A stretch of 61,515 bases of DNA, filler included, from Sphacelaria rigidula (lineage: Eukaryota), in assembly GCA_964200075.2 (NCBI GenBank). It is 8 parts of 8 records of this genome, joined end to end, with 100 filler letters (N's around TTAATTAATTAA, not from the genome) between each part and the next. Parts side by side here need not be neighbours in the genome. Positions count along the whole stretch, not along the records: positions 38,512 to 46,113 come from CAXNAA020014148.1; 7 more parts are not named here. One strand, given 5' to 3'. How positions within the stretch are numbered: the first letter of the stretch is position 1; every line of letters begins with the position of its first letter. Below are positions 7,604 to 60,686 of this stretch, one piece after another. Under the pieces are notes generated by a model that was not told the origin of the DNA, did not search any database, and worked only from the letters and a program-made list of their open reading frames with translations. The position numbers were made by a program, and so were the translations under genes.

Positions 7604-7703
7604 NNNNNNNNNNNNNNNNNNNNNNNNNNNNNNNNNNNNNNNNNNNNTTAATTAATTAANNNNNNNNNNNNNNNNNNNNNNNNNNNNNNNNNNNNNNNNN
7701 NNN
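7604..7703. other. Artificial contig spacer (also at 15306-15405, 23008-23107, 30710-30809, 38412-38511, 46114-46213, 53815-53914)
   Basis: N44-TTAATTAATTAA-N44, with stops in all six frames; identical at all seven joins. Confidence 0.99.
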
Positions 7704-20188: not shown

Positions 20189-20375
20189 GTTACTAGTAAT
20201 ACTATTCTCTTCACACCTGCAGATCTTTTGGAAAGATCAGGGTTCTTGGACTCTTGAATATCGCTGCTGTGGCGACCTTGATATGACACCTCCTCGCTCG
20301 TGCTGACCGATGTAGTCTTGACTCAAAGACTGATGACCTGAAGACCTAAGTGGTCGCGAACCGAGGCTGATAGCC

Positions 20376-22003: not shown

Positions 22004-23341
22004 GTGTGTGGTGCAGGGTCATCTGAGAAATTCGATGCAAACATTTCTGAGACGTAGGCCCGTACTTTGTAGACCCATGTGTGCGGGGCGTGATGTAGCG
22101 AACACGTTGAGGTATCACTGCGCATGTGTTTCTTCTGCTGTACGTGTTTCACTGATAAGTCACAAGTGACTTTGAATTATTTCAGTTTTCAGCTGAGAAA
22201 TTGTTCCATGTAAGTCGAGTTTCAATTTGGGTAATTTGGGGAGTGAGAATCTGCATAACATTGGTATTATTCCCCCGATATTTGCTCGTTTTTTCATGTT
22301 GTGCGAGTGCAAATTCATGTACATGAACGCGTGGAAGTACGACCCGTTTCACCTTGATTGACAGCTAGCAGTGAACTAGCAGCAAAAAAAGAAATACTCT
22401 TGGGTGCAGTGATGATTCATATTTTCTATTCTTGGGATACGTGTTTTTCTCTCGCGGTGATGAGTCGAAAGGGTGGAGTACAGAGTAGGCAGAGGAGTAA
22501 CCTTCGAAAGATCATGATTTTCTTGTTGGCTATTGTTTTTGTGTAAGGTAGTGCAGAGTAGGGAGGGAAGCATCCTCATTTTTCTTGTTTTTTTTTATCG
22601 TTCCGAACGTTACCGGGCGCATTACTCTCCATGACTGGGCGAGGAGCGATGTTCCATTTCAACATTCGAGTGTTACCCGACGGTGAATGCTTTGGACGGT
22701 ATTCAGTGTCATGTGTTCGATTGACATTGAGTGATTTCGTAGAAATTGTCGGAATTATGAAGAGAATTCCTCGCAACATATCGCGACGAGAGGTTTTGTT
22801 CCGTGACTTATCCATGGTGCGGTTTAGTGTGTTTTTCGGGGGCTATCAAACGGCTGTTGTTGTAACCGCCCGAGGGAGGGTGTTGATCTTCCTGTCGGTG
22901 ATAATGTATGATATCTTTCCCGGTTTTTTCAAGTATGAAATCGAAGTCATCCTACGATAGAGGGGGGGGGGGTGTACTCATGATCATGTATGCCATAGTC
23001 ATCAGACNNNNNNNNNNNNNNNNNNNNNNNNNNNNNNNNNNNNNNNNNNNNTTAATTAATTAANNNNNNNNNNNNNNNNNNNNNNNNNNNNNNNNNNNNN
23101 NNNNNNNCCGCGCCGGCTTTGTAGGGATGCGAGGTCAATGGTCTTATGACTATGGCATGCATGATCATGAGTACACCCCCCCTCTGTTTCCGCCGCATCG
23201 TTCTGATGGGGGTGATAGGGTCTCATTTGACATGTTGCTGAACATGCTGGAACCGAGAGACATGAGACTCCCCCCCCTCCCTCCTCGCCCCCCCTCCATT
23301 CCCTCATTACCCTTCACTCTACCCCTGTGCATGTTCCGCAG

Positions 23342-28209: not shown

Positions 28210-28744
28210 CATACGTCGGACGAGCACGAGTGACTCGTGGCGCAATCGTTGGCCGTAATAATTAATAGGGCGAGCACTTGAGTCATTGCTCGTTGGGCAA
28301 AAAATCAATAGGGCGAACACTCGAGTCAGTGCTCCTTGGGGGAAAACATAATAGGGCAGCGAGCACTCGAGTCATTGCTCATTGGTGGAGGAAAATAATA
28401 GGGGGAGCACTCGAGTCAGTGCTCGTTGGTGGAGAAAAACAATAGGGGGAGCTCTCGAGTCAGTGCTCGTTGTGGAAAAAAATAAAAGGGCGAGCACTCG
28501 AGTCATCGTTCGTTGTAAAAAAAAGTACGACTCGAGCGCACGAGTCATTACTCATTGTAACAAAGGCATACTCGAGCACACGAGTCAGGGCTCGTTGTAA
28601 AGAAAAGCAGTGGCTCAAGCGCTCGTGTCATCGCTCGTTGTGAAAAAAAAGCAAGGACTCGAGCACACGAGTCATGCTCGTTGTGTTTAAAAAAACATCC
28701 ACGAGTGCACTCGTTTCGACGAGTAATGACTCGTCCGGCGTGTG
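28210..28744. mobile_element. TIR element with an internal ~40-bp tandem array
   Basis: TIRs CATACGTCGGACGAG and CTCGTCCGGCGTGTG; about 11 units of GCGAGCACTCGAGTCA(T/G)TGCTCGTTG plus an A-rich linker; other copies at 46043-46113 and 60466-60686 (reverse). Confidence 0.75.
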
Positions 28745-30819
28745 AATTATCAAGGCCAAACATACTTTGAAAAAACGATCCCCACCAGGGTGGAAATGCG
28801 CTGCGAAGGTTAGATATCATCGTGAAACATCAAAATCGCGCGTCTTGGGCTCGCACATGTCGGCCCGGTAATCCAACCAACATAGTATGAGCTATCGCTT
28901 GAGGGCCATATCGAAACCCCCTCTCGTACTGTAACCATGTGCAGCGCCGCCGCTGTATGCAGCACGGACCAACACCAACACGAGAAAGAGAGAGGATGTT
29001 GAGAGGTATCTTGTTGCCGTTTCCCTCCGGAAACATATTTTCAGAATATCTCCGGAAATACGCGCAGTTATCTCAAAGTCGACCCCTGCCTTGTGCCGAG
29101 ACTTGAGATCTTTGAGATTTGGTCTCCTGCCACCCTGTTGTTGTCTCTCGTGAGCGAATACCCAGAAGGCACATTCTTCACTTGAAAAATGGGTGTGAGA
29201 CCCACCGCATCCATCTCGACGAATAGAGCACGTCATCTGTAGCCCTCGAACAGCCCTCGAAAACCACGAGCCCCGGGAATACGAGGCAATCAATCGTAAT
29301 TTGAGCATCACAAGGGCAGCCAACGCCGGTCTTGAGTCGCATTGTGTGCCATTCCGCCCTCCGGAATGCAACCCTCAGCCCAGGGCCACGACAGCGCGGT
29401 CAAAGCATCAAGACAACAGCACGAAAAACGGATGAATTATGTTCGCTTCGGAATACTTGACTAGTATTGCTCAACATTTCAAGGGTCGGACAAATCAATG
29501 ATTCGTCTGGAGATTACTTGGTCTTAGTGTAATTAATTCAAATCGTACGAATCAACCTCTAGGCTTTGTTTTCAGNNNNNNNNNNAAAGTTGCGTGGATA
29601 CCCCTTGGATCAGGGATCAACTTTCTTCTCCCTTTTGGGAAACCATCAACATTTCCATCTCAACCACGAGACAGAAACGTCACAGCGACTTGTCGGTTCA
29701 AATAGACTCCCATCATGGCCACCAAAATGCGGCAATGACTCGACTGTTCAGAGCAGCGTCGGTGATCGGAAAAGACGAGAGGATAATCGGCAAGTAAATC
29801 GAAAGCAAGCTCTCTTCTTGTCCGCCACCCCATCTGACGCCACACACACACGTCCCTCCCTAGAACGGACGCTCATCCACCTGCTGCACACTCCACACGC
29901 AACCCTTACACACAAGTCCAAACAAGCTTACCCGTACGGTAGTAGGCTCTTACAACTATGGAGCTTCCAGAAATGCATCCGGACAAGATTTCTCGTGAAG
30001 GCAAGTGAGGGATATTCCGTCACCTCGATCCAAGCCAATCCCAATATTTCTCATGTACATAATACAAACCCCTTATTTTTCCCCGTCATATTCTTCATGT
30101 ACGTTCAACGACAATTCCAATCACCAAATAACGTAGTCAGTTGAGGGTAAAAACTGTGTTGTGTGGTCATCTCATCCCTGATGCTCAACACAGAAGGATG
30201 CACAAGACATACAAACCAGGGCACGAGAAAGAGAAAAAAAGAGAGAAAAAACATTCAATATCATTTCTTGGACGCTTGGTATACAGCGCAAAAGTCTTCA
30301 TCGCCGTGCTTGTCTCGTGCACGCTTGAATTGCTCGTTGGCAGCCGCCGCAACGGGAAGGGACAATCCCAAGCAATCTCCTAATGCCTGTAGCATCGCAA
30401 ACACACAACACGCACACAAGAGGAAGCACGCAAAAACAAAATAATGTTGAGTGATTCCGAGATAGCCCTCCCTCGAACCCGCCTCGAAACTGTAACGAAG
30501 AAAAGGCCATAGAGTGCATGATAGCTGGTGTCAGACTGCATGAAGCGTCTCATACGAGCGACATTAGCGAAAACGATCCCAAGCGTGGGAGTTCCCAGCT
30601 GCTTGGTGTGCTCGGTCTTTGTCGTTTTGACTCACAAGTAAATTTTGCCTCCTTGAACCAGCCACTTCTCTAGGGGGAGGGGGGGGGGGGGGGCGGAAAC
30701 ATTTGGTGGNNNNNNNNNNNNNNNNNNNNNNNNNNNNNNNNNNNNNNNNNNNNTTAATTAATTAANNNNNNNNNNNNNNNNNNNNNNNNNNNNNNNNNNN
30801 NNNNNNNNNTTTTTGTTTC

Positions 30820-31308: not shown

Positions 31309-31700
31309 GAACAGAACATTGCAACCACACCACCGACAGCAACAAGAGCAAGAAGCAAAAAGCAAGCCAGAGAAGGACAAAAAAGAGAGACGAGATAATA
31401 AAACTGAAGACACACAGCAAAACAAAACAAAACAAAACAGAAGAGAACAGAACAGAACAGAACAGAACAGAACAGAACAACACAACACAACACAACACAA
31501 AACAACACAAAACAAAACAACACAAAACAAAACAAAACAAAACAAAACAAAACAAAACACAACAAAACACAACAAAACAAAACAAAACAAAACAAAACAA
31601 AACAAAACAAAACAAAACAAAACAAAACAAAACAAAACAAAACAAAACAAAACAAAACAAAACACAACAAAACACAACAAAAAAGAAAGGCAAGGCAAGG
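31275..31700. repeat. Microsatellites: (CA)n then compound (AAAAC/AGAAC/ACAAC)n
   Basis: (CA)n at about 31275-31307; pentanucleotide array at about 31418-31680. Confidence 0.95.
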
Positions 31701-38275: not shown

Positions 38276-38559
38276 AAAATGTACCGATAGACAACTTGGC
38301 CCCTCCATTGTGACGACAACGATACACTTTGCCCCCTGTCCCGAATGCCGCTGGTGAGAGACCCATGAGGCAGTGTAGAAGCCGTGGCTGTCTCTGGAAG
38401 TGGCGATACCCNNNNNNNNNNNNNNNNNNNNNNNNNNNNNNNNNNNNNNNNNNNNTTAATTAATTAANNNNNNNNNNNNNNNNNNNNNNNNNNNNNNNNN
38501 NNNNNNNNNNNCGTCGCCATGTGTTCTCTAACTCTTTGGCCTCTCTCTCGACCCCAAGA

Positions 38560-39260
38560 TATCACAAGCCCATGTTCTCCGCCGCAGTGACCCGAATCGA
38601 GTGCGTCAATAACTGCTACACCGTAAACGAACTATTTCCGTGGCTTTCTTGTGCGATAAAAAGCCGCCGTACCACTTGGGTTCTCCTGGAGGTGGTGACC
38701 CTAGTGTTTGATGGGGCAGCCAGCCTCCTTGGGCCCTTGCGCGTCCAACCGTCCGTACATGGTGTGTCTGGTCAGGCGTGTTTCGTTCTGCTGGACAAAG
38801 CCCCCGGCAAACCGAACCTGACGCTTGCGGACAGTCATCTAGATACGTCCGTAGTTAATCATCTCGACTACAGCCCCGTGCGAAAGAGTCTTGTGACTCT
38901 TTCGACTATATATTCCGTATCTCACCACTAGCAGCTAAAGCTTGTGATGGGCAGACTGTTGAAGTCCTCGGAACGTAACGTCCATGTGGCATATCCTGAC
39001 AGCAGCAGTTCCATCACCTCTGCCTCATGCAGCCGGATTGTTAACGATAGGTGGGCGTTGGGTCTGCCGTGGAGTTGGGAGCGACAGTTTCGGTCATGGT
39101 ACTTGTCTTGCGTTCTGGTGTCACGTTCTGGTCTCGCGGGGAAGGTATAGCCTCCTCAGCCCGCGTCTGCCGCCAGCTTCAATCCGCTGAATCTGGTAAT
39201 ATGTCACACGTGTCTCGACTCCTACCCCGTGCCTTCCGTGACGGTACCCCAAGTCCAATG
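38560..39260 (-). pseudogene. RTE-clade LINE ORF2 C-terminal remnant
   Basis: Manual minus-strand translation with stops and frameshifts: SQLHGRPNAHLSLTIRLHEAEVMELLLSGYATWTLRSEDFNSL...TVRKRQVRFAGGFVQQNETRLTRHTMYGRLDAQGPKEAGCP, resembling the RTE LLYGCxTWT and RRLxFAG...GRP region. Confidence 0.7.
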
Positions 39261-40361
39261 AAAGCTCTTCTACCGCGGGGTTCAGTGTGGATCTCGGTAC
39301 AGAGCGAAACTCCGCAGCTGCAGGAATTAAACCTGGAGATCTACACTTGTTACCGTGGAGTTGTGATCTGGTAGTACATTTTCAATACTCGATGGTTACA
39401 AAATACATATTTTTTAGGTCCGCGATAGTCTCGGCACGAACAGGTACCGTTCTGCCCGGAAATGTTATGGCCCGAAAATATAATTCGAAACAAGGCATAC
39501 CACAAGGCTGTCTTCAATTACGGGTTTTGGGAAATGGTGCATGGTAGGGTACTTTTTTTGTCGCGGTTTGCTGATATGTCCAGTGTGCGAATGTGGTGGG
39601 GTGCGATATGGTACGGGGTGGCGATTTATCTCCTTTGGGTTTGCCACTTGTGGCGCGTGAAAGAATGTACAAACATCGATACCTCGACATACAGTATCAA
39701 AGGTTCGAGATAGCCTCGCCGGTGGGTTCGGGAGTATGCATGATCACGCGAAATACACGTGACTACTGTTGGTGAAAATGATCACACATGACCGTGTATG
39801 AACTGGATACAAGTCTCACATCATGGCTATCTTTAGAACGGATGGCAGAAGCAAAGATGTGACGTGACCATCCTTGAAACAGGCCCAAGTCTCACGTGAC
39901 CATTTTCGAGTTGGTTCAGGAACACTGGCACTTGAGCTGACACGGTTGTGAAGGCAGTGTAGCACTAAACACGTTTGCCCAAGCTCAACGGTTACGACTC
40001 GGACTCGTCCGTAATTTTGATATTTCCGTCGTAGGAGTCACCAATCACACGACTCAATAGCCGTCGGACGACTGCACGTTCAAAGGCTGTCTCGGGATGA
40101 TTTTTCACGTGCTCCCGATTCACATCTAAAGTTGTTCAAAGGTGATCATCTGAGACATTTGCCCGCGTCAAAGATGGTTCCGTGAACCTTTCCACTGCTG
40201 CTGGTCTTCCTGGAAGTGGAGATATACAATTTTGTGCTTTTGTTTTCAACCATAGTCGTTGCGACGAAGAATGTGCAGGTCGTGGTGTACCCTTGGAGTC
40301 CATGTGTGAGCATATTCACTCACATGCGTCACACTCCCCAGCACCAGACACAGTATGCCTT

Positions 40362-40451
40362 CAATAGAGGTATCTCAAACTAGAGGTTCCCGATGCGTTA
40401 TGAACTACTGTGATAGATACCGGGAATGCCGAGTTTGAGATACGTCCATTG
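40362..40451. mobile_element. 90-bp MITE; related copy at ~14876-14967
   Basis: TIRs CAATAGAGGTATCTCAAACT and AGTTTGAGATACGTCCATTG; the reverse complement aligns to 14876-14967. Confidence 0.6.
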
Positions 40452-43400
40452 ACGGCTGGAATATATGTCTGACGAAGAAGGATCACTTGGAACGAGCAGC
40501 GAACCAACCAAGACTTGGGTGGCGGTCGATGTGAACAACTCGGGTGTTGGTGTTTCTCGAACTTTCCGACGCCAGTATTAAGGGCTGCTGACCGTCGAAA
40601 GGCAAAGAACTTTACTTTGCAGCGGTCATATCTGAACGAATCCGTCGACGAACACCAATAAGGACTAGATACACGTTTTAATAAGCAGAACGGTGTTCTG
40701 TATCAGCGCGCACAGTACGATAGCGACGAACGCGATGTTCCTCGTGCTTTGGTGCTCCCCCTCGTGATTATAACATTTCCATCTTTTGCGCGCTTTTTCG
40801 GGCTTCGTGTGCTATGATGTTTGCTATTGTTACGCCGACAGCAGGAAAAAACGGATTTGCTCATATACCGAGGGATGGGTAGTTTTTTACACGGCATATT
40901 GTTTCTACATACTGGGCAATATGCAATCAATACATGCAATACAATATGACTTAAGTGTACCGCGTGAGGCATAGCCTACAGCAACTGTTGAACCACCTAT
41001 TGTCTAGGGTGCGGGACATTTATCGTCTTTCTTACGTGCCCATCTTCTTCAAGCGGTTCTACGATGGAAATTTAATACTTGTGCCCTATTCGAAAATGGT
41101 CCCGTAAGATGTTCGCTTTTGCCGTTCCGTTCACCGATGATCATGTGACACTTGTGTCGGGTTGAAAGATGGTTGGGCGAGGGCATGCTGTGCACGTGAA
41201 TACCCTCGCTAGGTTCAATGCTTCTCAAGGTTTTATTTGGCAAACCCGATATTGGATAGGCTCAATGTTCCCAGGGGACTAAGCACGCTCCGGTGCTGAC
41301 TGAAAAGCAGCACGGCACACACGTCAGCCCACGCAGAGAATCGTTGGCGAGCATCTGTGCAGACGACCGTACCTCGATCAAGTAGCCTCACTTGTGCCCA
41401 CCGGCTCGGCTCTTAGAGTTATCCGTAGCACCAACTCCGCTGCGAATCAACACCCTCACCCATCATGTACTTGGTGTGCGGTTGTGCGTTATTTTCGACC
41501 TTAACGGCACACCTCTTGGAACGAATACACACACGAGAGATGAAACCGTGATCGTTGGTGTACTGGCTCACCGTGGATCGAGATTTGTGATCTTCCTTGG
41601 GAGATTCCGACCAATGATGAGCGCCTGCAGCTGCATTGCCCGCTGGTTGCATGCGTACCTTTGCATGTAAAGTGGCGAGAGCACAGTGAAGGTGGTTCAT
41701 AGGCGACGGATTTCACCCCCAACCAAGATAGTGGAGGAGTCACTTTCAATGATATGCCGTGGAATCGGATATCGCAGTTGCGCCACCTCAACTATAGGTC
41801 TTTCGAGCCGTGTAGGCGCAGCGTTCATCCCTTCGCATCGAGCCCTTGTGCTGGCGTTGTAAGACGCTGAGACGCTGCCAGCACAGCACACTACGCGTAA
41901 GGGTTAACAGGAGATCTAGCACATCCTCACTTCAGAACGTATATGTCCGACATACATTAAAAAGCTGTTCGCTCTTGGAGGTATATGTCCAACACGCGTG
42001 GGGTACCTGTTCACTCTAAGAAGGCTTCGTCGAATATGTGCAGGTATTGTTTCAGGTTAGAACAACTTTGCGGAATATCGGCAGCTACGTGCCACTTCAG
42101 AACAAATTACTCCAACTTCGCCAGATATCTTTGAGCTTGAAACAATTTTCTTGAACGCTGTCAAACATCTTCCGGCTTGAAGCAAGTTTCTCGAACGTTT
42201 TCTAGATATTTTTCAGGTCAGAACATGGTTTTCCAGAACACGTCTAGACAGAATGATGTTCACAGCGACGACCATATCATTTCAGGCTATCTCGAATATT
42301 CGTACCTATCGTGTATAGCCATCATGTATTCATCCACCAGCTTTATAATTCAAGTCTTTGCTCCCCTCACCCATCTTGTGTCCCGCTCGACGTCCGGCGC
42401 TTCCCTGATGTGGCACTCCGATACGGCGAAGAGAAGCATGTAGTCGCCATGCACATCGTGTAGACACGATAAAGTTAGAACCCAAATCCCTCGATGAAAC
42501 CGGTGACACAGATGATGGATACTCACTTGCAAGCCAAATGGCAACAAAAAACAGTAAAGTACTGTAGCTTCGGACGATGACGAAATGTTATTAGCTTGTA
42601 CTTCTTGAAACGAATACACACATGCGTACGGCAGAAACGCGCATGCGTACGCAAAAAGAACAAAAATTACGAATACGGGACGCCATGTGCGCGCGTGTGC
42701 ATTGAGATTTGGCAGCTAATTTTTTTCTCTTCGCCTGTGCACATATTAGCTTCAACACGAGATTTGTAATACCTGGTCTTTCGAGGGTCACTTAAGACGC
42801 TGTTGAGGAAACAGGGAACCTCTTTTTTTTTTTTCGGTCGTCACATACAACGGGAGTGAAGTAGATCAGTGGTCTGCGAGGTCGGGATGGTTCTCCCAAA
42901 CGTGTACAGGTGTCTATGAGTATATAATAACTGTCTCCAGTTATGTCAGGTATTGCGAAAATACGAAGCAAAGTCCTCAAGCGTTGGCAGGTGTTGTGCA
43001 AGCCCGGATATATATCTGTGATGGGCCTGTCGCATCCCTCCAGGTTTCATTGTCACAGCCAAGCACGATTTGGCATTGGATTTTCGGCTAGTAGGTTTTT
43101 CTGCAACACATATATTTATATTTGTACTTCACCGGTCCTACAGTTGTTCTCGATGCCTACTGCCGTAGTGTAGAGGATATCGTCATCCGCCGAATCCTGT
43201 TGGGCAGTAGGTTTGTATGGGTCAGCATATAAAGAGGGCCGTGTCAGTGGGCGCACGTGTCTCGTACTCTTCTGGATTATGCAGAGCAGATGCAATGCCA
43301 TTGTTTCATGAAACCAATTGAACTCCTTGCCAGCTGTAGCTCACGACCAGTTTTCCGGCGTTTGTGCGATCGTGCTTCCCGCAAACGTTTGTTCTAGAAG

Positions 43401-43545
43401 GAGGACGACGCGAAGAGGGAGCTGACGGCCGACGTAATAACTTAAGGTTGCATCAACGAGGGCTGCTCCACCATAGAGTTATACAGTTTGAAAGGCTATG
43501 AGGCAAAGTTCTACTCTTAGCACACCAGGGCGGGATTGGTAGAGT

Positions 43546-45858
43546 GTGGTGAAGTCTGGCGACGAGGGCCGCCTACAGCATCCTTCGAATGGTGTACCAG
43601 GAAGCAAGACGGGGGAATTCTCCTCCCAGCACGCCAAGGCGGGGATGGTTAATGTAATGAAACGGTGCGGCGACGAGGGCTGCCTCAAGCAAGCGTTGAA
43701 TGGTGTAGCAGAAACCACGAAGGCGGGGTTCTGCTCCGAGCACGCCAGGGCGAGTGCAGTGAATGTGGTGAGCAAGATATGCGGCTACAAGGGGTGTCTC
43801 AAGCAACTGTCGTATGGTGTAGCAGGAAGCAAGATGGAAGAGTTCTGCTCCGAGCACGCTAGGGCGGGAATGGTAAATGTGATGAACGAAAGGTGCGGCT
43901 ACGAGAGCTGTCTCACGAAACCGTCATATAGTGTAGCAGGAAGCAAGGAGGCGGAGTTCTGCTCCGAGCACGCTAGGGCGGGAATGGTATATGTGGTGAA
44001 CAAGGGATGCGGAGACGAGGGCTGTCTCACGAAACCGTCGTATGGTGTAGCAGGAAGCAAGAAGGCGGAGTTCTGCTCGGAGCACGCTAGGGCAGGAATG
44101 GTCAACGTGGTGAACAAGAGATGCGGCTACGAGGGCTGTCTCAAGCAAGCGTCGTATGGCGTAACAGGAAGCAGAAAGGCGGAGTTCTGCTCTAAGCACG
44201 CCACAGCGGGAATGGTAAATGTGGTGCACAAGAGGTGCGGTAAGGAGGGCTGTTTCAAGCAAGCGTCGTATGGCGTAACAGGAAGCAGGAAGACGGAGTT
44301 CTGCTCTAAGCACGCTAGAGCGGGAATGGTTAATGTGGTGCAGAGGAAGTGCGGTAAGGAGGACTGTCTCAAGCAACCGTCGTATGGTGTAGCAGGAAGC
44401 AGGAAGGCGGAGTTCTGCTCCAAGCACGCCAAAGCGAGAATGGTAAATGTGATGCGAAAGAGGTGCGATAAGGAGGACTGTCTCAAGCATCCGTCGTATG
44501 GTGTAGCAGGAAGCAAGAAGAGGGAGTTCTGCTTCGAGCACGCCAGAGCGGGAATGGTTGATGTGGTGAGCAAGAGATGCGGCTACGAGGGCTGTCTCAA
44601 GCACCGGTTGTATGGTGTAGCAGGAAGCAAGAAGCGGGAGTTCTGCTCCGAGCACGCTAAGGCGGGAATGGTCAACGTGGTGAATAAGAGGTGCGGCTAC
44701 GAAGGCTGTCTCAAGCACCGGTTGTATGGTGTAGCAGGAAGCAAGGAGGCGGAGTTCTGCTTCGAGCACGCTAGGGCAGGAATGGTCGATGTGGTGAGCA
44801 AGAGATGCGGCTACGAGGGGTGTCTCACGCAACCGTCGTATGGTGTAGCAGGAACCAAGAAGGCGGAGTTCTGCTCCGAGCACGCCAGGGCGGGAACGAT
44901 GAATGTGGTGAGCAAGCGATGCGGCGACGAGGGGTGTCTCAAGCAACCGTCGTATGGTGTAGCAGGAAGCAGGAAGGCGGAGTTCTGCTCGGAGCACGCC
45001 AAGGGGGGAATGGTCAACGTGGTGATTAAGAGGTGCGGAGACGAGGGCTGTATCAAGAGATCGTCGTATGGTGTAGCAGGAAGCATGAAGGCGGAGTTCT
45101 GCTTCGAGCACGCCAGGGGGGGAATGGTCAACGTGGTGAGCAAGAGATGCGGCTACGAGGGGTGTCTCAAGCACCCCTCGTACGGTGTAGAAGGGGGCAA
45201 GACGGCGGAGTTCTGCTTTGTGCACGCCAGGGCGGGAATGGTAAATGTGAAGAACAAGGCGCAATTCTTCCGACAGCATGCTACTACACAAAACACAGCA
45301 GCGGTGTGCAACACCGCAGAAGTCTCCGCTCGGGTGGCCATCTCCGGCCTTAGCCCTGCGAAGGATAGTCGAGGAAGCGTTTTTGATGTACGTGGAATAA
45401 AACGCAAACGCCCAGCATGCTCGGGCTCTGGTTCAAGTCCCGTGATCGGTACTTGCCGTGGTGTCTGCCCCAGTCCCAGGCGAGATGACACACCACTACC
45501 CTTACTCTCAGTACAAATAACCTCAGGATACGATGGTGAGGTGTCGTTAGAGACAAAGGCAGGGTCAGGAATAAGGGTAGAGCCGGCAGTCTTCTTTTTA
45601 GCGCACTGTGGCCCTAGGGCCGGAGGGCGTAAGGAACAGGCGTCCAATTCAAGTGCTACAGCCAGCGTAGGTGGTAGTAGCAGCTCCAGTAGCAGTGGTA
45701 GCGGTATGGGTACGAGATGGATCAATCAGTCGTCAGCAGAGGTGTCTGGTTGCCTTGGCATGTTTGATAATATGCCAAATGAAGAGGCAGAGGAAACTTT
45801 GAGCGTGAAGTTGGAGCTAGGAGTGCCTAGTCTCCCTCCTCGGACGTCCGGCAGTTGA
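43546..45858 (+). CDS. EsV-1-7 domain (Cys/His zinc-finger-like repeat) protein, intronless, with 14 intact repeats and 1 degenerate repeat; first ATG at 43645
   Basis: 770-codon open frame; 38-aa (114-bp) unit KRCGYEGCLKQPSYGVAGSKKAEFCSEHARAGMVNVVS with C-X4-C-X16-C-X2-H spacing, the EsV-1-7 motif; Ser/Gly-rich tail with IKRKR. Confidence 0.9.
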   Translation: MVKSGDEGRLQHPSNGVPGSKTGEFSSQHAKAGMVNVMKRCGDEGCLKQALNGVAETTKAGFCSEHARASAVNVVSKICGYKGCLKQLSYGVAGSKMEEFCSEHARAGMVNVMNERCGYESCLTKPSYSVAGSKEAEFCSEHARAGMVYVVNKGCGDEGCLTKPSYGVAGSKKAEFCSEHARAGMVNVVNKRCGYEGCLKQASYGVTGSRKAEFCSKHATAGMVNVVHKRCGKEGCFKQASYGVTGSRKTEFCSKHARAGMVNVVQRKCGKEDCLKQPSYGVAGSRKAEFCSKHAKARMVNVMRKRCDKEDCLKHPSYGVAGSKKREFCFEHARAGMVDVVSKRCGYEGCLKHRLYGVAGSKKREFCSEHAKAGMVNVVNKRCGYEGCLKHRLYGVAGSKEAEFCFEHARAGMVDVVSKRCGYEGCLTQPSYGVAGTKKAEFCSEHARAGTMNVVSKRCGDEGCLKQPSYGVAGSRKAEFCSEHAKGGMVNVVIKRCGDEGCIKRSSYGVAGSMKAEFCFEHARGGMVNVVSKRCGYEGCLKHPSYGVEGGKTAEFCFVHARAGMVNVKNKAQFFRQHATTQNTAAVCNTAEVSARVAISGLSPAKDSRGSVFDVRGIKRKRPACSGSGSSPVIGTCRGVCPSPRRDDTPLPLLSVQITSGYDGEVSLETKAGSGIRVEPAVFFLAHCGPRAGGRKEQASNSSATASVGGSSSSSSSGSGMGTRWINQSSAEVSGCLGMFDNMPNEEAEETLSVKLELGVPSLPPRTSGS

Positions 45859-46497
45859 TGCATCATGTGTCGTTCATGATTTGGACGTGTAGATTGAACG
45901 CAGAGTATGCGAGCGTGTGCTATCGTGCACCGTCGACACTTTTAGACGAGGAGCGGTTGGTAAAGATTATTCTTTTTCGTCAAAGGTGTTAGTGAGGTTG
46001 TCGGGACCTGATGTCCGAAGGCAAAGTTTCATCAAGATCTCCATACGTCGGACGAGCCATAACTCGTCGAGACGAGTGCACTCGTTGATGTTTTTCGAAA
46101 ACACAACGAGCATNNNNNNNNNNNNNNNNNNNNNNNNNNNNNNNNNNNNNNNNNNNNTTAATTAATTAANNNNNNNNNNNNNNNNNNNNNNNNNNNNNNN
46201 NNNNNNNNNNNNNCCACCCCAAACGGTGATGGAAGATCAAAGACCACAGCACAAGAACGCGCGGCATCAACCACTATTGAGTGATCACGCGATAGCCCCC
46301 CCCCCCCCCCCCGAACCAACCTCAAAATGACCATACAGCGCATGAAGCCCCTCATATTGGGGACATTGGCGAAAGCGATCCCAAGCGTGGGACTTCTCAG
46401 CTTCTCGGTGTTCGGTGTTCTCGGTTTCCGTCATTTCGATTAGCATATAGATTTTGCTTCCTCAAACCGGCCACTTTTCTTGGGGGGGGGGGGGCTA

Positions 46498-46860: not shown

Positions 46861-47751
46861 CTGGGAACATCCATACGAGGAGCGGAAGAAGGGGGACGTA
46901 TGCTCACGAAAAGTCTGCGCGAAGGGGAAGCGAGTTGGGTGCAAAATTCCTGCCTCACGAAAAAAAAAAGAGAAAAAGCAGCACGTGGACTTCGAGACGC
47001 GCTCGATCGGTCTCTGAAACGCGTGCGGCAACTCTGGAGAACAGTATGTGAACATGTATGTACACGCGCAACTCATCCCAGAAATGATCATTCCGCGAGA
47101 TTTCGTGGCAGCGCACGCCATGGTTGGGTTTGCCTTGCGTAGCGCGCTGGCGAGCGGAGAGATTACGTAGCGTTGTGTGCTTAGCTCCCAATATGAGAGC
47201 AAGCTCATCGACTAGAGTAGCGGGTGCAAGTAAGTCACCAGCCCGTGCCTTCGTGCCCACCAGCCGGTTGGGATTTCTTGCTCGATGGAAGCTGTTGCCC
47301 AAGTGGTGGCGTTGGGCTCCGCTTTATTACGTTGGGTGCTCGTTTTCGTGGCACATGGGTTTGATTTCCAGGTTCAACAGCATGTACCCACAAGCATGAA
47401 CTCGTTTCAGGGGAGCATCAGAACACGTGCCCAGGCAAAAAGTTTTATCAAGAAGCAGGTCACAATCGGTTGGCACCATTCAAGGACCAGGGTTCAACGT
47501 AGGTGTCTGAAAACTCAAGGTCAGGTGAGTAGGAGCCGCCTGCAGGCCATGAAAAACACTTGGTACCGACGTCCTGCTCCCAGTCCCTCGTTCGGAACCT
47601 ACAACAACTATCTTCACTAGGTCGAAATCTAGTCATGAATACGGTTCTTGCATGCCCATCACTGTGACTGATAGTCACACATTATCCCTACTAGCCTTAG
47701 TCCACACTAAAAACTTGAAAAAAAATCAATGAGGACATTGCAGGTGTTATG

Positions 47752-48219
47752 CCAACTCTAATGGGAGCCGTTCAAAATTCCTGTCGAAAACTGCCTTTTG
47801 GGCCCTTCTCTGTCGATTTACGCTCGAAAAGAGGGCTACGCAGATGTTGACGCCTTGGAATGATTTGCTATACTCGTTGAGACCGTTCTAGGGCAACTCT
47901 GCATTTCCCGCTGGCCGCACCTTTGTTTTTGACCAAATCAGCCCAAACACGAATTCTCCGTAAAAAACGGTCAGGTGATCAAAATCTCCCTCCGTATTTT
48001 GATCGCTTGACCGTTTTTTATTGAAAATCCGTGTGCGGCCTAAAATAAAAGTGCGGCCAGCGGGAAATGCAAAGTTGCCCTGGAACGGTCGCAATGAGTA
48101 GAGCATGTCATTCCAAGGCGTCTGTACCCGCCTAGCCCTCGTTTCGGGCGTGAAGCGACGTAAAAGGGTCAAAAAGGCAGTTCGAAGCAGGAATTTTGAA
48201 CAGCTCCCATTAGAGTCGG
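47752..48219. mobile_element. ~470-bp intronic foldback element (near-complete hairpin)
   Basis: Arm matches ACTCTAATGGGAG/CTCCCATTAGAGT, GACGCCTTGGAATGA/TCATTCCAAGGCGTC and TGCATTTCCCGCTGGCCGCAC/GTGCGGCCAGCGGGAAATGCA. Confidence 0.85.
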
Positions 48220-48298
48220 TCTTACAACGGCCAACAGGTGCCCTATGTACACAAACAAAAACACCACCTTCTACACCCACAAAAACGATTGTACCCAC

Positions 48299-50960: not shown

Positions 50961-53900
50961 CGTGAAACAATTTCAAGAGAGCAGAAAAGATGAGTTTCAA
51001 GCATGAGATCACCCAGCGCGGTCGTTGTTCATTTCGGCTCTACCCCAACAACCGTCGCATGTTTTTGCCGCTTCCTCGTCGCACGTACGTAACGTAACGC
51101 GAAGCATCCACTGTGTTTGGGCTTCTACTTACTTACTATGCTAGTACGGGGTCTGTGTGCATGTGACCCATCATGAAGATGAAACGATTTCTTCAGGCCC
51201 CGTACGTATTAGCATACTAAGTAGAAGCCTAACTATAGTGCCGATATCTTCTATTCTGAGGCCAACAACGGTGTCAAATGTCCCAAACCTAAAACCTCCG
51301 AGAAAACAACTTCCGATCTCCAAAAAACGTGCTTTTGACCCCGAACGAAAATGATTACCCTGTTATTGTACGAGTCCAGTAAGTGATTCTGCACTCCCCT
51401 CTCCGTTCCCGGCCTAAGTCTTCTTTGTGGAGATGCCAAACACGTGGTTGACTTCGTAAGGTGATCGGTTGATCTGAAAACAGGCACCCACTTCCCCCTC
51501 AAAAACCACCCCTCCGCTCCCTGGAAACCCATGGGTGTCTCCGGAGTGTCAGCTCGCGAAAATGTTCCGAGACGAGGCTCGTAGCCGAAGGGACAACACG
51601 TTGACTCTTCGATCGCCAGGGTGGTCATCTGGGTCTTCCAGGCAGGCGTCCTCCAAGTGAAAATGATGCGGATTCAACGGATGATTCCCCCCCTGACGCC
51701 CAAAAACAATCAAACTACATAATATAGTATACTACATAATACCAGGGGGTTCGACAAAAATACAGGGGGCCCGAGAACAACCTGATCAAACGGGTGGTGC
51801 AGTTTATGCGACTTTGTCGTCAATCACCATGGTTGAATAGGCTTTAGCTACGTATGCGCCCTTTTTCGTTGAAATCAAGCTTTTAACTTCTCTTTATAAG
51901 CGTTGAGATTTTCTTCAAGCCCCACTTCAAGCTTTTTTGGCACAAATCAGGCGCGCTTTATGCGCCGTATTCCCGTCCTCGTTGCGGCAGTATCCCTTCA
52001 CGAGGCACGCCTTCTAGTAATCGCATGAGGACAAGACGGCAAGTTGGACATTCGATTTTTTCACGTCCTTCAAAAAACAAAAAATGTTTTTCTTCAGTTT
52101 TTTTTCAGTCGTTGAGTTCAAAGGCCACAACCTGCACACCTAATACATTCCAATCCACGTACGGAAACAACAAATGCCACAATACTCATGGCACATGATC
52201 CAATAGTAGGGCACTCTAGCCTCTGAACATGGGGCATCGTAGCTTTTGGCCTCTCGCCCGGCAAGCTACAACAAGCTATCATGCTCCCCCCCCTCCCCCC
52301 ATCATTTACCGTCAGTCGACATTGAAAATCTTGTCGAACTACCAGTATCGATTGTACTTGATCAGAACCGCGGATTCGACCCGGCCATCTAACGCCTTCG
52401 ACTGCCGGGAGTTCAAGCACCCCCTCAAAATCGAAGACACTCGCTCCATAGGCGCGACGATGGCTGGATAAGTACAACATCCATCGCCACGAGATACCAA
52501 CCGGGAAGCCTGTTCTTGTTATCCCCAAACGTCAGAAAACCAAACTCTTCGAAAACAAAATAGTGCCATGCATATAGAATATAAACCGGGGCATCCTGCT
52601 GGTCAGACCCGCAAAACAATAGGAACACGAAACACGATAATGCAAATTTGAAGTATTGAAGCCTGAAGCGTTTCGGCCTGTCTGGTGACGGATCGCGCGA
52701 CATGGAGCACTTGTGGGCAGCTGCAGGAGGCGCATGAAAGATGATCGCAATTTCATGCGCGTTTCATGCGCGTTTCAAGCATGTTGAGCTCGTTTTGTGA
52801 ATATCAAGCTAATTACAAGTCTTGCGATGAAAAGGCCTATTTAGGCTCAAAACCTCCACATTAAGCTAAATTTTATGCGCGCATACGGGACTCAAACCTA
52901 TGGTTGAATCATACTTGACATTAGCCTAGGACCAATAGATTTGGATATTTGATGGACGCACAATCCCGAACGCCCCCACCGTGCCGTGCACACATTTTTG
53001 CCCCAAATCTGCGCCATAGGTGCCGATTAGATCTCTGCCCACGCACACTTTGCCTTGGACACCATATGCACACCCCTTGCCTGAGGGTGTTCGGTATGCC
53101 TTGGGTTGGGGATATGGGGGTTAGGGTAAGAGTTACATTAAATCTAGAGTGCGCCGATCATTGTGATTTGACGACAACCTCGTGTAGACCAACCTCCGGA
53201 TGGGACAACAAAAGCGGTTGACCTTGCAAGGTTGCCACGTCGCCGGGTACAGAGCTGTGCGGGAATGGGATCGCGGCACGGAAAATAACTGTGCTAATAC
53301 TACTGTCGGTGTTGTGGGAATGGAGACTGCAGCGGAAATAGAAGTGATTTCGTACTTTGCGAGACCACTGAGTACAAGACTTTTTAAGCGCGGGTGTTGA
53401 CATCTCGAAGGTCGAAACTGTGAACGCGTGTTGCTACCGTACAGGTGTTTCGTTCATCATATTACAGCGTGCTGTTGTAAATTGATGGAATGTATGTGAT
53501 CATCGAGCTGGTACTGAACACCGCGGTGATAGAGTTTAGTCCGTTTTTCGCGACAAACAGCACCCGCCTCTGAATCATGCACTCGATACTCAGTCAGGTC
53601 TTGGGCACGTACCGTGCGTCAGCAACCAAACCGCTGGTATATGTAGAAACGCACACACGTGCCACAACAACAAAAAAATCCTTGTTCGTATTATTGTCTT
53701 CCCCTTGCCCCAACCGCTCCGTCTCGAAAGGGATGCGTGGTCAATGGTCAAACGACCAAGGCAAGCAACAAATGAGTACCCCCCCTCCCCCCCTCTCCCC
53801 TCCCTCCTTCCCCTNNNNNNNNNNNNNNNNNNNNNNNNNNNNNNNNNNNNNNNNNNNNTTAATTAATTAANNNNNNNNNNNNNNNNNNNNNNNNNNNNNN

Positions 53901-54420
53901 NNNNNNNNNNNNNNGCCTAATAGACCGAGTTGGGGGTCTATAGAGACCTCTGCTCCTACTGTTTCATGCGAAGTCACCGACTCTCGCTTGATACGGTATA
54001 ATTTTTACACCAACTACAAGGCCGGACCGTGTTCGCTATTTTTTGCGTTGTGTACTTCGAACCTGAATGCACCCACCGGGTTAACCCTTTCCAGGGCACA
54101 TTCCGCGCTCGACGGAAGAGGTCGGACAATGTCCTGTTCCTTCTGCAGGTTATGAGGGTCGGCTTAAAAAGCACTTGAAAATAAGGATCGACCTCGGAAT
54201 GTGTCAGTGGTGTGAAAGTGCATGTGGCGTGTGGCGTGTGGCGTGTGGCGTCGAAATAGGAAACACGTTACATTAGCGCACGATTTCTCCATGTCAAGGA
54301 TGCAGTCTAAAATCAAGTGTATCCCAAAAAACGAAGGAAAAGGGACGATGGTTAGTAAAACGTCGCCGAACAGCCCGGACACTTTTCGGAGGCTAGCCAT
54401 CCCCCCGCGTTCAGCACCCC

Positions 54421-59202: not shown

Positions 59203-59730
59203 AAAGATTGAGGGCTCTTTCCGGTTGCTACGATGTGGCAGCTTCAGGTAGACCAATCGCGAACGCCCAGTACGTCCTCAGCAAGTTAGATCGCGTTGTT
59301 GAACATTCGGCATGTGAGGGTGCCATTAGCGCAGCTGCCCCTTCCGAACACCGTTGTTTTCAAAACGCTCTCGTCACCTGATGTCTACATGGGCTATTTC
59401 TCATGCCGTACTCTACAGCGGCCTGAAGACTCCGGGTTATATCCGACGATACTCGCGAGTGTTTTCGTTGCAACGATGAGTCGGCACCGCTACTTGACGT
59501 TTTCCGCACGAGCTTTGCAGCTTCGTTACTCCTTGCTTTCGGTAGACATGAGGCGCAGCGTGTTGGGAATGAAAGATTGCACACGCACGATTCACTCGTG
59601 GCTTCCGTCATTCAAATTCATCCAGGTGGCAAACAAAAATGCCGGCAGTTGTTCATGACTAACTCGGCGTGCGACTCTCTCCCGTTTCCCCCCGTCTTGA
59701 CGATGGTGTAATATGCGCGTGTATCGTCAG

Positions 59731-59865
59731 TCTCAGGAGTGCAGCGATCCGGAAGTCCACATGTCCGGTCGATACATCTTCGACCGAGCCCAGCGACAGA
59801 TATTCGACCTCATGGACACGGAGGCGTTTCCTCTGTTCCTGCGATCGAGCTATGTTGCGATGCAG
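59731..59865 (+). CDS. Exon encoding the C-terminal helices of an RGS (regulator of G-protein signalling) domain
   Basis: IFDRAQRQIFDLMDTEAFPLFLRSSY resembles the RGS consensus FDxAQxxIxxLMxxDSxPRFLxS; CAG|GT donor at 59865/59866; acceptor at 59730 or 59736. Confidence 0.7.
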
Positions 59866-60465
59866 GTGATATGTTGTTGCACGAGTAGTCTTGGTATGTC
59901 ATTTGAGAGGAGCTACGGGCTCATAGCGTTGAAGCGTTGGATGAACACCTCAAGATTCATTACATTTTCATACAAAGTAGATCTTGTCGCAAACGGCAGG
60001 CCTCTTCTCTACAGGTGCGAGTGTCTCGAGAAGGTGAAGGGTGATCACACACTCCTTCAGGCAGTTGGTAGAGGTCATCGCCACTCCTCTTGATTGACAC
60101 ACCCTAGCAGGACTCACTCGTGTGTTGTTGGAGTGTCATGGAGTCTGCCCTTATTGCTGCCATTATGTAAGGCTCGTGTGGTCAATGAATGTCCTCGTAT
60201 GCTGCCGTTTGGACCCCAAACAGCCATCTGTTTGAAACAAAACGAACCAACATGTCGCGTCAAATCACCTCCCATAGGACATCGGATTTGCAATGAAAAG
60301 TTCTATTTTTCGTCAAACGTCGGACCAGCCCTCATAACGATTTCTGAATCTTTGCATCCCGCTCTGTGATAGCCTAATCCTTACAGTTCACGGCTTCCCA
60401 CACGTAGGGAAGTTTGGATTTATCTCTCTCACATATCGTAAGGGTGATGATGGTTGTAAAGCTTT

Positions 60466-60686
60466 CACACGTCGGACGAGTCATTACTCGTCGGAACTAG
60501 TGCACTTGTGGATGGTTTTTGAAACACAACGAGCATGACTCGTGCGCTCGAGTCATTACTTTTTTTTACAACGAGCAATGACTCGAGTGCTCGCCCTATT
60601 GGCTTGTTTCCACAACGAGCAATGACTCGAGTGCTCGCCCCATTAGTTTGTTTCCACAACGAGCAATGACTCGAGTGCTCGCCCCT
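60466..60686. mobile_element. Partial copy of the tandem-array TIR element
   Basis: CACACGTCGGACGAGTCATTACTCGTCG followed by ACAACGAGCAATGACTCGAGTGCTCGCCC repeats. Confidence 0.75.

Follow-up and report, generated by a model that had tools for sequence, protein, structure and literature searches.

A young 14-unit EsV-1-7 repeat array in Sphacelaria rigidula and its possible role in nucleic-acid binding

The EsV-1-7 genes form the largest orthogroup across the brown-algal genomes, and the early patterning of the sporophyte is under the control of one member. A total of 2018 EsV-1-7 proteins were reported from 31 genomes, and the domain, of unknown function, was described as possibly representing a novel zinc-finger class (10.1101/2024.02.19.579948). 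In the same work, orthologues of Ectocarpus IMMEDIATE UPRIGHT (IMM) were recognized by an IMM-specific N-terminal domain that precedes five EsV-1-7 repeats (10.1101/2024.02.19.579948). The domain also occurs at the N-terminus of the transposase of TcMar-2_Ec32, a Tc1/mariner element of Ectocarpus (PMC12477816). The first-pass annotation of the locus described here took the function of the family to be unresolved, in agreement with the literature on the family as far as its available text goes, and proposed that the array reads nucleic acids by a TALE-like code.

The locus lies in a window of 61,515 nucleotides, filler included (the whole stretch of DNA that was analysed), assembled from eight parts of the Sphacelaria rigidula genome. 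A single open frame of 770 codons, annotated at 43546..45858 on the + strand, was borne out and is open throughout, but it has no ATG at 43546, and its first 40 codons are a decayed repeat unit. The features of the locus, with the evidence for each, are as follows:

43449..43556, + strand: decayed repeat unit -1 (nhmmer, DNA profile built from the 14 units; 36.1 bits, E=3.3e-10)
43555..43665, + strand: decayed repeat unit 0 (nhmmer, 74.7 bits, E=3.6e-22; translation)
43645..43647, + strand: most likely start codon, ATG, Met34 of the open frame (first ATG in frame)
43666..45261, + strand: 14 intact EsV-1-7 units, C-X4-C-X16-C-X2-H, each of 38 aa (114 nt) (regular expression, TRF, Pfam, nhmmer)
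45262..45855, + strand: C-terminal tail of 198 aa (BLASTP, composition, alignment of relatives)
45262..45282, + strand: QFFRQHA, remnant of a degenerate terminal unit, corresponding to its second half (EFC..H) (tail alignment)
45391..45414, + strand: RGIKRKRP, basic NLS-like motif (consensus VRG.KRKRA in at least 7 of 9 rows)
45571..45582, + strand: IRVE, at the site of the (M/I/V)KVE of relatives (tail alignment)
45805..45816, + strand: VKLE, close to the C-terminus, a motif of the psi-K-x-E type resembling the SUMO consensus (consensus VK..L in at least 7 of 9 rows)
45856..45858, + strand: stop codon TGA (translation)

The 14 intact, evenly spaced repeats that had been annotated were recovered as 14 pattern matches, beginning at residues 41, 79 and so on to 535, in exact steps of 38 aa. 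TRF returned a period of 114 with 14.9 copies, 84% matches, 0% indels and a score of 2052, and each intact unit scored 100-115 bits with nhmmer. All 56 of the 56 zinc-ligand residues are intact, and this invariance suggests that zinc is bound, presumably one ion per unit through Cys1, Cys6, Cys23, and His26. The array is basic, as had been noted (pI 9.17, 87 K/R against 51 D/E), with a net charge of +36. Assignment to the EsV-1-7 family was confirmed with the Pfam profile PF19114 (EsV_1_7_cys), which matched the whole protein in 15 stretches (E=1.4e-220, 713.2 bits, cut-off 25) and each of the 14 units alone (14/14; 41.2-70 bits against the cut-off of 25). Among the 120 closest homologues, 661 matches to C-X4-C-X16-C-X2-H were counted, the 38-aa spacing was the commonest (364 spacings), and the maximum number of canonical (X16) units was 11, compared with 14 here. 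The gene is an intact, unusually long member of an already known family, from which it is set apart by the length of its array and by a subfamily-specific tail.

The closest homologues are other Sphacelaria rigidula proteins, with 48-57% identity and a tail in common. No NCLDV marker was detected among the 93 ORFs of at least 110 aa scanned in the window, and no close relative of the array was found in IMG/VR. Since the best matches are algal and share the tail, and both viral searches were negative, the locus appears to be a host gene rather than a viral insert. An IMMEDIATE UPRIGHT orthologue was considered and set aside by the published criterion, as the protein has 14 units and lacks the N-terminal domain, the array beginning 8 residues after the likely initiator Met. 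Matches in PHROGs and NCBIfam were noise driven by the repeats, the sole PDB sequence match of a four-unit piece (glycerate kinase) was spurious, and a PDB search with a profile of the repeat alignment gave nothing meaningful. A zf-MIZ match in homologue P0062, below the cut-off and inside the array, was not used; neither were the ELO, UCH, EF-hand, and RVT fusions seen in EukProt, which may be chimeric gene models.

The explanation that best fits the locus overall, and to which we would give an even chance, is that of an intact EsV-1-7 host gene with a young array, the product of which acts as a nuclear, zinc-dependent binder of nucleic acids. The missing ATG at the 5′ end of the frame and the decayed units upstream count against this explanation, and the gene may be truncated or dying. 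Unit -1 lies in a different frame from the array and outside the coding sequence, and carries a C-to-Y change at the third ligand, a TAG stop within the S-E-H position, and the loss of one codon. Unit 0 has kept the frame of the array, but all three Cys are replaced (by S, R, and S) and one linker codon is lost; it probably serves as 5′ leader as far as its internal ATG. The Met encoded there corresponds to the one conserved in the GMVNV linker of the repeat unit, and initiation at this codon would give a product of 737 aa with the N-terminus MVNVMKRC (43645..45858). Translation is likely to start at this position, since no ATG precedes it in the frame and the gene models of the closest homologues begin alike: MVNV/MVDV..K.C starts are found in P0002, P0004, P0008, P0010, P0017, P0030, and P0034, and also in P0264, P0265, P0269, P0272, and P0273. 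These models may share one annotation habit.

The pairwise nucleotide identity between units averages 82% (range 72-90), with the most diverged units, 1 and 14, at the edges of the array and neighbouring units grouping together (5/6/7, 9/10). On this comparison, the units are young duplicates; the array would have expanded recently, its 114-nt unit being duplicated by unequal crossover, and two units past its 5′ edge would have decayed into the non-coding leader. A total of 83 residue changes were inferred among the units, none of which falls in the four ligand columns (the chance under an even spread is (34/38)^83 = 9.8e-5), and V14, F22, A27, and V34 are also invariant. Selection would thus preserve the zinc ligands and the hydrophobic core formed by these four residues, with drift at about the neutral rate in the linker between modules and in the loop that follows Cys2. 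Branch counts for the array (N=83, S=35) give an omega of ~0.64, with ~0.47 outside the columns that had been annotated as hot and ~1.4 inside them, and nucleotide changes are nearly equal by codon position (37/46/49). The near-equal codon positions and the omega of 0.64 amount to weak constraint for a working gene, and count against a functional reading.

The alternative suggested by these observations is a non-functional or dying copy, which has lost its true 5′ end, is drifting, and retains an open frame only because its duplications are young. It would account for the frame beginning without an ATG downstream of two decayed units, one of them with a stop and a frame shift, and for the relaxed codon pattern. 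Two defects of the tail fit it as well, namely the Arg of IRVE, where relatives have their first psi-K-x-E site, and the deletion of the first half of the terminal unit. The protein is also absent from a collection of 5.8 billion proteins. Moreover, the antisense strand of the repeat DNA is open over 502 codons, so that the length of the frame by itself is weak proof of coding. A dying copy would, however, hardly be expected to keep every ligand and the four core residues against 83 changes elsewhere (P about 1e-4), to have accumulated zero indels in the 1,596 nt of the array, or to have retained a non-repetitive tail of 198 open codons with its subfamily motifs, and the start at the same in-unit Met in homologue models also speaks against it; we consider it decidedly unlikely. 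Contigs from X1-X3, runs taken for RNA only by guess, align without differences to the unique tail segment 45463-45757 and to parts of the array; these same runs of guessed RNA do not cover 39000-43265, except for one 202-nt X3 contig with 7 differences. In run X5, unlike in X1-X3 (again, RNA by guess), all 30 bins were covered. This coverage speaks neither in favour of expression nor against it. No terminal inverted repeats flanking the gene were found when it was checked as a transposon.

The tail is rich in S, G, P, and T (41%), with a pI of 8.6, and has no Pfam match at E<=1. BLASTP aligned it to P0004 with 51% identity over 196 aa (E=1.2e-47) and to six further homologues at E<1e-8, and only 30 representatives at E<=0.001 were retrieved among 1.84 billion sequences. 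It is confined to a small subfamily, the other members of which were likewise seen in Sphacelaria rigidula. The nine-row consensus of the window protein and eight Sphacelaria homologues keeps VRG.KRKRA, KVE, and VK..L; in these eight, the degenerate terminal unit is fuller, its first half having been deleted in the window protein. The NLS-like IKRKR of the first-pass annotation was found as part of RGIKRKRP, and an R..KRKR-type match occurs in 13 of the 30 tail relatives, a set that includes many fragments. Import into the nucleus may proceed through this motif. IRVE carries an Arg in place of the Lys, and is not a psi-K-x-E site. The annotated SUMO-consensus-like VKLE is present, with MKLE, VKID, VKLK, and VKRE as variants at its site in relatives, and a psi-K-x-[ED] match lies within the last 120 aa in 27 of the 30 tail relatives, making VKLE a candidate site of SUMOylation.

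The first-pass proposal of nucleic-acid binding, taken apart from its TALE-like code, receives circumstantial support from the basic array, the conserved KRKR motif, and the domains to which the repeat is fused elsewhere. In addition to the Tc1/mariner transposase, 57 of the 120 closest homologues carry, after the array, a C-terminal domain with the motif RPD..E.DE..H..NPD, in a layout like that of Vsr-type nucleases. Relatives of one such protein (P0120) are encoded on contigs with NCLDV capsid, Rpb2, TopoII, and PCNA genes. The Vsr-like-looking assignment of this viral domain holds at the motif level only: in Pfam, it has no significant match (DUF2726 at E=0.0012 and ArenaCapSnatch at 0.028 only), its profile gave 0 matches against the PDB, and hhalign against E. 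coli Vsr returned a probability of 0.25% (E=0.24). A tblastn search of phages and plasmids with P0141 returned no match. The window protein (P0001) lacks the RPD..E.DE..H..NPD motif, and contains no nuclease or transposase domain. Because the fused partners in relatives are a transposase and a Vsr-like-looking domain, DNA is the favoured ligand. The protein would accordingly function as a nuclear, zinc-dependent, multivalent binder of nucleic acids, with DNA or chromatin as the more probable target.

Protein binding, too, is a role of zinc-module arrays, LIM and MYM among them, an observation that counts against the nucleic-acid-binder reading. The EsV-1-7 modules might likewise form a rigid rod or solenoid, as in LIM, MYM, B-box, or RING-type proteins, that binds proteins or other ligands without contacting nucleic acid directly. 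The available text of the literature gives no biochemical function for the family, which leaves room for such a scaffold. The linker H-A-x-x-G-M-V-N-V is conserved and hydrophobic across 650 units (M31 88%, V32 68%, V34 66%), as would fit modules packed against each other, and variable surface loops would suit the recognition of partners too. Single units show weak, sub-threshold Pfam matches to zf-FCS/MYM and zf-AN1, and the psi-K-x-E motifs might indicate regulation via SUMO-dependent complexes. The transposase and Vsr-like-looking fusions, some of them on giant-virus contigs, are, in contrast, what would be expected of a DNA-targeting module, and the strong net positive charge of the array is also at odds with a scaffold, which we regard as rather unlikely.

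An array that binds RNA in nuclear RNA processing, with modules reading short single-stranded words in the manner of CCCH or RanBP2-type fingers, would share the basic, multi-module zinc architecture and the three Cys and one His ligands of CCCH fingers, and the data presented here do not tell DNA from RNA. CCCH fingers have the spacing C-X7-8-C-X5-C-X3-H, however, and both the order and the spacing of the ligands differ in the EsV-1-7 unit. The partners fused to the repeat in relatives (transposase, Vsr-like layout) act on DNA, and no RNA-binding family is among the Pfam matches at E<=1. We consider RNA binding of this kind very improbable.

The TALE-like proposal holds that the array is programmable, as in TALE or PPR proteins, each 38-aa unit reading one or a few bases through the residues at +3/+4 after the second Cys (columns 9 and 10), with other positions contributing. 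The residues listed at +3/+4, in the linker, and in the three positions preceding EFC were all confirmed exactly. The variation said to be concentrated at these positions is not significantly clumped in the window array. In a set of 97 other arrays, variability is highest at position +3 and in the linker. In the window, 30 of the 38 columns change; the 83 changes are not over-dispersed over the 34 non-ligand columns (index 1.22, P=0.17), the maximum per column is 7 (P=0.34), and columns 9 and 10 together hold only 13% of the changes. These two columns account for 11 nonsynonymous and 1 synonymous steps, a ratio in the direction of a code but not significant (Fisher P=0.11). Units with identical +3/+4 pairs (5/6, 9/10, 3/4) are neighbours that share other changes too, which indicates that the pairs were inherited by duplication rather than set independently.

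Family-wide, the pattern is more suggestive. Column 9 is the most variable within the 97 other arrays (mean pairwise mismatch 0.82) and ranks in the top three in 35 of them, compared with 8.6 expected (binomial P=1.4e-13, the arrays not being independent), and its residues are mostly R (23%), Q (21%), H (8%), and K (7%). Among 18 arrays whose units are highly alike, variation at columns 36 and 9 is 2.7 and 2.6 times the array mean, and six near-identical units of the giant-virus array L002 differ by residue only at the seven columns 9, 11, 13, 23, 24, 34, and 35. These properties, along with the fusion of the relatives' repeat to DNA-acting domains, are those that a code would predict. Column 10, on the other hand, is conserved (P 64%, A 21%, and S 9% of 650 units) and is among the three most variable columns in 0 of the 97 arrays. 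The window locus helps to show that variability in the family lies at column 9 and in the linker rather than at column 10. Between the giant-virus orthologues compared, the hot columns are among the least conserved (column 9 identical in 7 of 15 repeat pairs, column 36 in 6 of 15), and the identity of individual repeats in eight orthologues is carried by many columns; in these eight, column 14 is identical at 0.78 between orthologues against 0.05 between repeats, and column 9 at 0.47 against 0.10. The Cys/His ligands, moreover, would imply a zinc module rather than a helical TALE/PPR repeat. Low constraint may explain the hot +3 and linker positions as well as a code does. With variation that extends beyond two residues, a conserved Pro/Ala/Ser at +4, and hot positions that are among the least conserved between the viral orthologues compared, the code is unsupported for the window array, and we judge it quite improbable. 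For the zinc-dependent binder preferred here, any sequence preference would be distributed among a number of surface positions in each module.

In a wider reading, which is speculative and unlikely, EsV-1-7 arrays are a natural modular device for DNA recognition in viral, transposon, and algal settings, and the window array is a young, fast-diversifying reader. Giant viruses would aim a Vsr-like nuclease with such arrays, the Ectocarpus Tc1/mariner element would use the domain on its transposase, and brown algae would have domesticated the arrays by the hundreds as nuclear regulators, with the loop after Cys2 (columns 7-11, peak at 9) and the linker (columns 35-36) setting the preference of each unit. 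If the repeat is a DNA-reading module, a major lineage-specific expansion would be explained and linked to giant-virus nucleases and a transposon, and a new programmable scaffold would be on offer. The window locus by itself shows no DNA-reading role; its value is as material for a binding assay, being a long and clean array of young duplicates.

Compared with the known systems, the window protein is closest to other brown-algal EsV-1-7 proteins, including IMMEDIATE UPRIGHT, with which it shares the motif, the spacing, the tandem units, the absence of other Pfam domains, and membership in an expanded family; it differs in its subfamily tail and in units that are unusually alike (82% at the nucleotide level). 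The giant-virus proteins (the P0120 group, loci L001-L008) share the repeat family and the variable loop after Cys2, in arrays of ~7-10 units, but have extra Cys-rich segments and the RPD..E.DE..H..NPD domain, also likened to the 'EDxHD' type, and, at least in the older viral groups compared, their units have diverged from one another, each being conserved between orthologues. TALE and PPR proteins consist of helical repeats without metal ligands, and their specificity resides in two or so fixed residues. The likeness to these proteins (TALEs being known from Xanthomonas) lies in tandem modules of similar length, in the modular mode of reading that was proposed, and, in some EsV-1-7 arrays, in near-identical units with few variable positions; in the window array, variation is spread over most columns, and a conserved Pro occupies one of the two positions put forward as the code. 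The ligand spacing of all 14 units is identical to that found in Zn1, the first finger of the SBP (SQUAMOSA promoter-binding) DNA-binding domain, CX4CX16CX2H (10.1101/2021.08.22.457055). The SBP domain, however, is single rather than tandem and has a second finger, CX2CX3HX11C, whereas each window unit has only four ligands. The Pfam SBP profile (PF03110) matched the protein below threshold (15.7 bits against a cut-off of 27, E=0.018, profile positions 1-34) and 1 of the 14 single units at E<=1, and no SBP chain appeared in the PDB profile search, so that the link looks thin. C2H2 arrays, including those of natural or engineered zinc-finger nucleases, differ in their ligands and unit length (~28 residues, compared with C3H units of 38 aa spaced X4/X16/X2), and no zf-C2H2 match was found with Pfam in the protein or its single units. 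They nevertheless share with the EsV-1-7 arrays one zinc per small module, a conserved linker, nuclease and transposase fusions in relatives, and units that are individually conserved between orthologues, and any sequence preference of the window array would be nearer to that of C2H2 fingers than to a two-residue TALE code.

The repeats of the EsV-1-7 gene were found to be genuine, well past chance. A pattern search of the open frame for C-X4-C-X16-C-X2-H returned 14 matches, the first at residue 41, spaced by 38 residues with zero indels, and Tandem Repeats Finder reported a period of 114 with 14.9 copies, 84% matches and 0% indels (score 2052). The Pfam profile EsV_1_7_cys (PF19114) matched the frame product in 15 stretches (E=1.4e-220), and 14/14 single units exceeded its curated cut-off of 25 bits, with 41-70 bits each. 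The pattern search agrees with the first-pass annotation on 14 uniform 38-residue units in one frame, and its family assignment holds for the whole product as well as unit by unit. Its residue lists for the pair at +3/+4 after the second Cys, the three residues before EFC and the linker proved exact when the units were re-read, and the array is indeed basic (pI 9.17, net charge +36). Frame length in this repeat DNA is no evidence of coding, because a 502-codon frame is likewise open on the antisense strand of the array (43924-45432, minus strand) and draws spurious sub-threshold Pfam matches. The frame and two decayed units at its 5′ end are as follows.

43546..45858, plus strand: open frame of 770 codons
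43555-43665, plus strand: decayed unit within the frame, 74.7 bits against a DNA profile built from the 14 units
43449-43556, plus strand: decayed unit upstream, 36.1 bits against the same profile

The frame opens without an ATG. Its first 40 codons represent a decayed unit that has S, R and S in place of the three Cys and lacks one linker codon, and the second, more decayed unit lies upstream in a different frame, with a C-to-Y change and a TAG stop. When the whole window was scanned with the DNA profile, nothing was detected beyond the array and these two units. The first ATG, at 43645, specifies the Met conserved in the GMVNV linker and precedes the first intact Cys by 8 residues, and at least 12 gene models of the closest homologues start alike (MVNV..K.C). 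The coding sequence is likely to be 43645..45858 (737 aa), a start that we infer, since the homologue models may have one annotation habit in common.

Nucleotide identity between units averages 82% (range 72-90). The most diverged units are the edge units 1 and 14, and neighbours group together as 5/6/7, 9/10 and 4/13/12, a pattern that fits the usual picture of unequal crossing-over within a tandem array, with older copies stranded at the edges. Equal +3/+4 pairs occur in adjacent units (QA/QA in 5 and 6, HR/HR in 9 and 10, KP/KP in 3 and 4); because the same neighbouring units have other changes in common, these pairs were co-inherited and not set singly. The gene is an ordinary, though unusually long and young, member of the known EsV-1-7 family.

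The C-terminal tail (residues 573-770) matches the tails of Sphacelaria proteins. It aligns with the homologue P0004 at 51% over 196 aa (E=1.2e-47) and with six further homologues at E<1e-8, and a nine-row alignment gave VRG.KRKRA, KVE and VK..L as the consensus of at least 7/9 rows. Tail relatives at E<=0.001 amount to only 30 representatives among 1.84 billion proteins; a psi-K-x-E match falls in the last 120 residues of 27/30, and an R..KRKR-type match is found in 13/30. In the window's protein, the first psi-K-x-E site reads IRVE, without the Lys, and the terminal degenerate unit lacks its first half, with QFFRQHA left. The tail is evidently not junk, and its motifs suggest nuclear import and SUMOylation.

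The piece that bears the gene extends from 38512 to 46113, with artificial-looking spacers at both ends, and linkage to the other pieces is not implied. Paired 44-N runs around the 12-mer TTAATTAATTAA recur with an exact 7702-nt period at 7604-7703, 15306-15405, 23008-23107, 30710-30809, 38412-38511, 46114-46213 and 53815-53914. The TTAATTAATTAA element resembles an inserted spacer or mask with stops in all six frames, and contiguity across it is not implied. Two 10-N runs are also present (11407 and 29576). No viral genes were detected among the 93 window ORFs scanned, no second EsV-1-7 copy in the window and no terminal inverted repeats flanking the gene, and the best protein matches are algal, with the same tail. 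The gene is a host gene and not a resident provirus.

Elsewhere in the window, several open stretches at 1674-7068 (plus strand) match the cysteine-rich repeats Ephrin_rec_like, TNFR_ELAPOR1 and NCD3G, and probably serve as exons of a large extracellular protein made up of Cys-rich repeats. At 16575-20236 (minus strand) lies a decayed LTR retrotransposon of the Ty1/copia type, whose pieces (Retrotran_gag_2, gag_pre-integrase, integrase core, SH3_retrovirus) fall in separate frames. Copies of a 43-44-nt satellite that harbours an internal palindrome (GAGCACTCGAG..) were found in opposite orientations at 28263-28685 and 60525-60685, and a (CAAAA)53 microsatellite at 31418-31682. An inverted repeat at 47740-48231 (195-nt arms, 81% complementary, 102-nt spacer) sits within a 448-codon minus-strand open frame that has much charged low-complexity sequence and no Pfam match. 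The open stretch at 59701-60090 (plus strand), possibly an exon, weakly matches the end of an RGS domain (E=2e-4, under the cut-off).

Variation among the 14 units was examined on a unit tree, with columns numbered from the first Cys, so that the +3/+4 pair occupies columns 9 and 10. The tree implied 83 residue changes altering 30/38 columns. Over the 34 non-ligand columns these changes showed no significant over-dispersion (index 1.22, P=0.17), nor was the column maximum of 7 changes exceptional (P=0.34), and columns 9 and 10 together received 13% of all changes. The four ligand columns showed no changes (even-spread probability 9.8e-5), and the ligands are intact in 56/56 positions. Because ligands and tail are under selection, the protein is probably functional. 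Branch counts gave 83 nonsynonymous and 35 synonymous changes (omega ~0.64). In the columns singled out by the first-pass annotation (the +3/+4 pair, the three residues before EFC and the linker) the ratio was 34/4, compared with 49/31 elsewhere (Fisher P=0.002, for columns picked after the data were seen), with omega ~1.4 and ~0.47, respectively; columns 9 and 10 by themselves gave 11/1 (P=0.11). These values fit neutral or mildly diversifying change at some positions and constraint at others.

The family was sampled through the 120 closest homologues, which yielded 650 canonical units and 97 arrays with at least four canonical units each. Column 9 was the most variable within arrays (mismatch 0.82; among the top three in 35/97), followed by columns 36 (0.80) and 35 (0.79), whereas column 10 was less variable than average (0.42; among the top three in 0/97) and is mostly P (64%), A (21%) or S (9%) in the 650 units. 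Among arrays whose units are highly alike (18 of them), column 36 varied 2.7-fold and column 9 2.6-fold relative to the array mean. Within the family, variation therefore peaks in the loop just past the second Cys and in the inter-module linker. The proposed concentration of variation is weakly upheld in this array, where 30/38 columns change; across the family the pattern is clearer, and it stands for column 9 and the linker but fails for column 10.

Fusions of the repeat bear on its ligand. A domain with the pattern RPD..E.DE..H..NPD follows the array in 57/120 closest homologues. Giant-virus proteins (at eight IMG/VR loci, and in the group of P0120 and P0108) combine 7-10 EsV-1-7 units, extra Cys-rich segments and this domain. 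Relatives of P0120 sit on IMG/VR contigs named giant-virus MAGs, beside genes for NCLDV major capsid protein, Rpb2, topoisomerase II, PCNA, TK and ThyX, and the Atlas neighbours of two such fusion proteins are Nucleocytoviricota clusters, one auto-named 'Endonuclease (Fragment)'. The layout of the viral domain parallels that of E. coli Vsr (RPD followed by a strand, a His a few residues later and finally G..hhhhh.W), and the 'EDxHD' homing endonucleases, as described in the accessible text of PMC3239194, provide a comparison group. Pfam returned only DUF2726 (E=0.0012) and ArenaCapSnatch (0.028) for this domain, a PDB profile search gave 0 hits, and hhalign against E. coli Vsr gave a probability of 0.25%; the nuclease reading is suggested at the level of motifs, with no sequence test in its favour. 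DNA is most likely the ligand of the repeat, because two separate fusions join it to DNA-acting enzymes: this putative viral nuclease, and the Ectocarpus transposase TcMar-2_Ec32, whose N-terminal EsV-1-7 domain is described in the accessible part of PMC12477816. From motifs, charge and fusions, the window's protein is probably nuclear and in contact with DNA.

Likenesses to other zinc fingers were also detected. The ligand spacing of EsV-1-7 is that of Zn1 in the plant SBP DNA-binding domain as described in 10.1101/2021.08.22.457055. A two-unit piece aligned with positions 1-34 of the SBP profile (E=0.018, under the cut-off), the alignment recurred in just 1/14 single units, and sequence and profile searches of the PDB returned no SBP chain. 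Zf_WRKY19 (PF24906) scored above its cut-off of 27 bits at the start of an EsV-1-7 unit in the proteins P0020 and P0047 (35.3 and 36.2 bits), which may tie the repeat to a zinc finger that takes its name from a land-plant protein; the EsV-1-7 family is absent from land plants according to the available portion of 10.1101/2024.02.19.579948. Both likenesses are best regarded as leads, not memberships.

The first-pass annotation had proposed a candidate TALE-like modular code. The accessible literature on EsV-1-7 (PF19114/IPR043822) contained no structure, binding assay or per-repeat code. A conserved code would differ between repeats yet persist from one orthologue to the next. Two orthologue pairs from giant viruses supplied 15 repeat pairs; column 9 was identical in 7 of these and column 36 in 6, both among the lowest values. 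In eight orthologues with 7 canonical units, each unit's identity was conserved and carried by many columns, with identities between orthologues and between repeats of 0.78 versus 0.05 for column 14, 0.56 versus 0.05 for column 24 and 0.47 versus 0.10 for column 9, in samples that are small and viral, not algal. With column 10 conserved as P/A/S, variation in 30/38 columns and hot columns poorly kept between orthologues, a TALE-like two-residue code is not supported. Fast-evolving specificity residues, like those of arms-race zinc fingers, would be compatible with this orthologue pattern, and a looser modular reading by EsV-1-7 units is possible. In their orthologue pattern, the viral EsV-1-7 arrays compared are nearer to old C2H2, ankyrin or TPR arrays than to TALEs.
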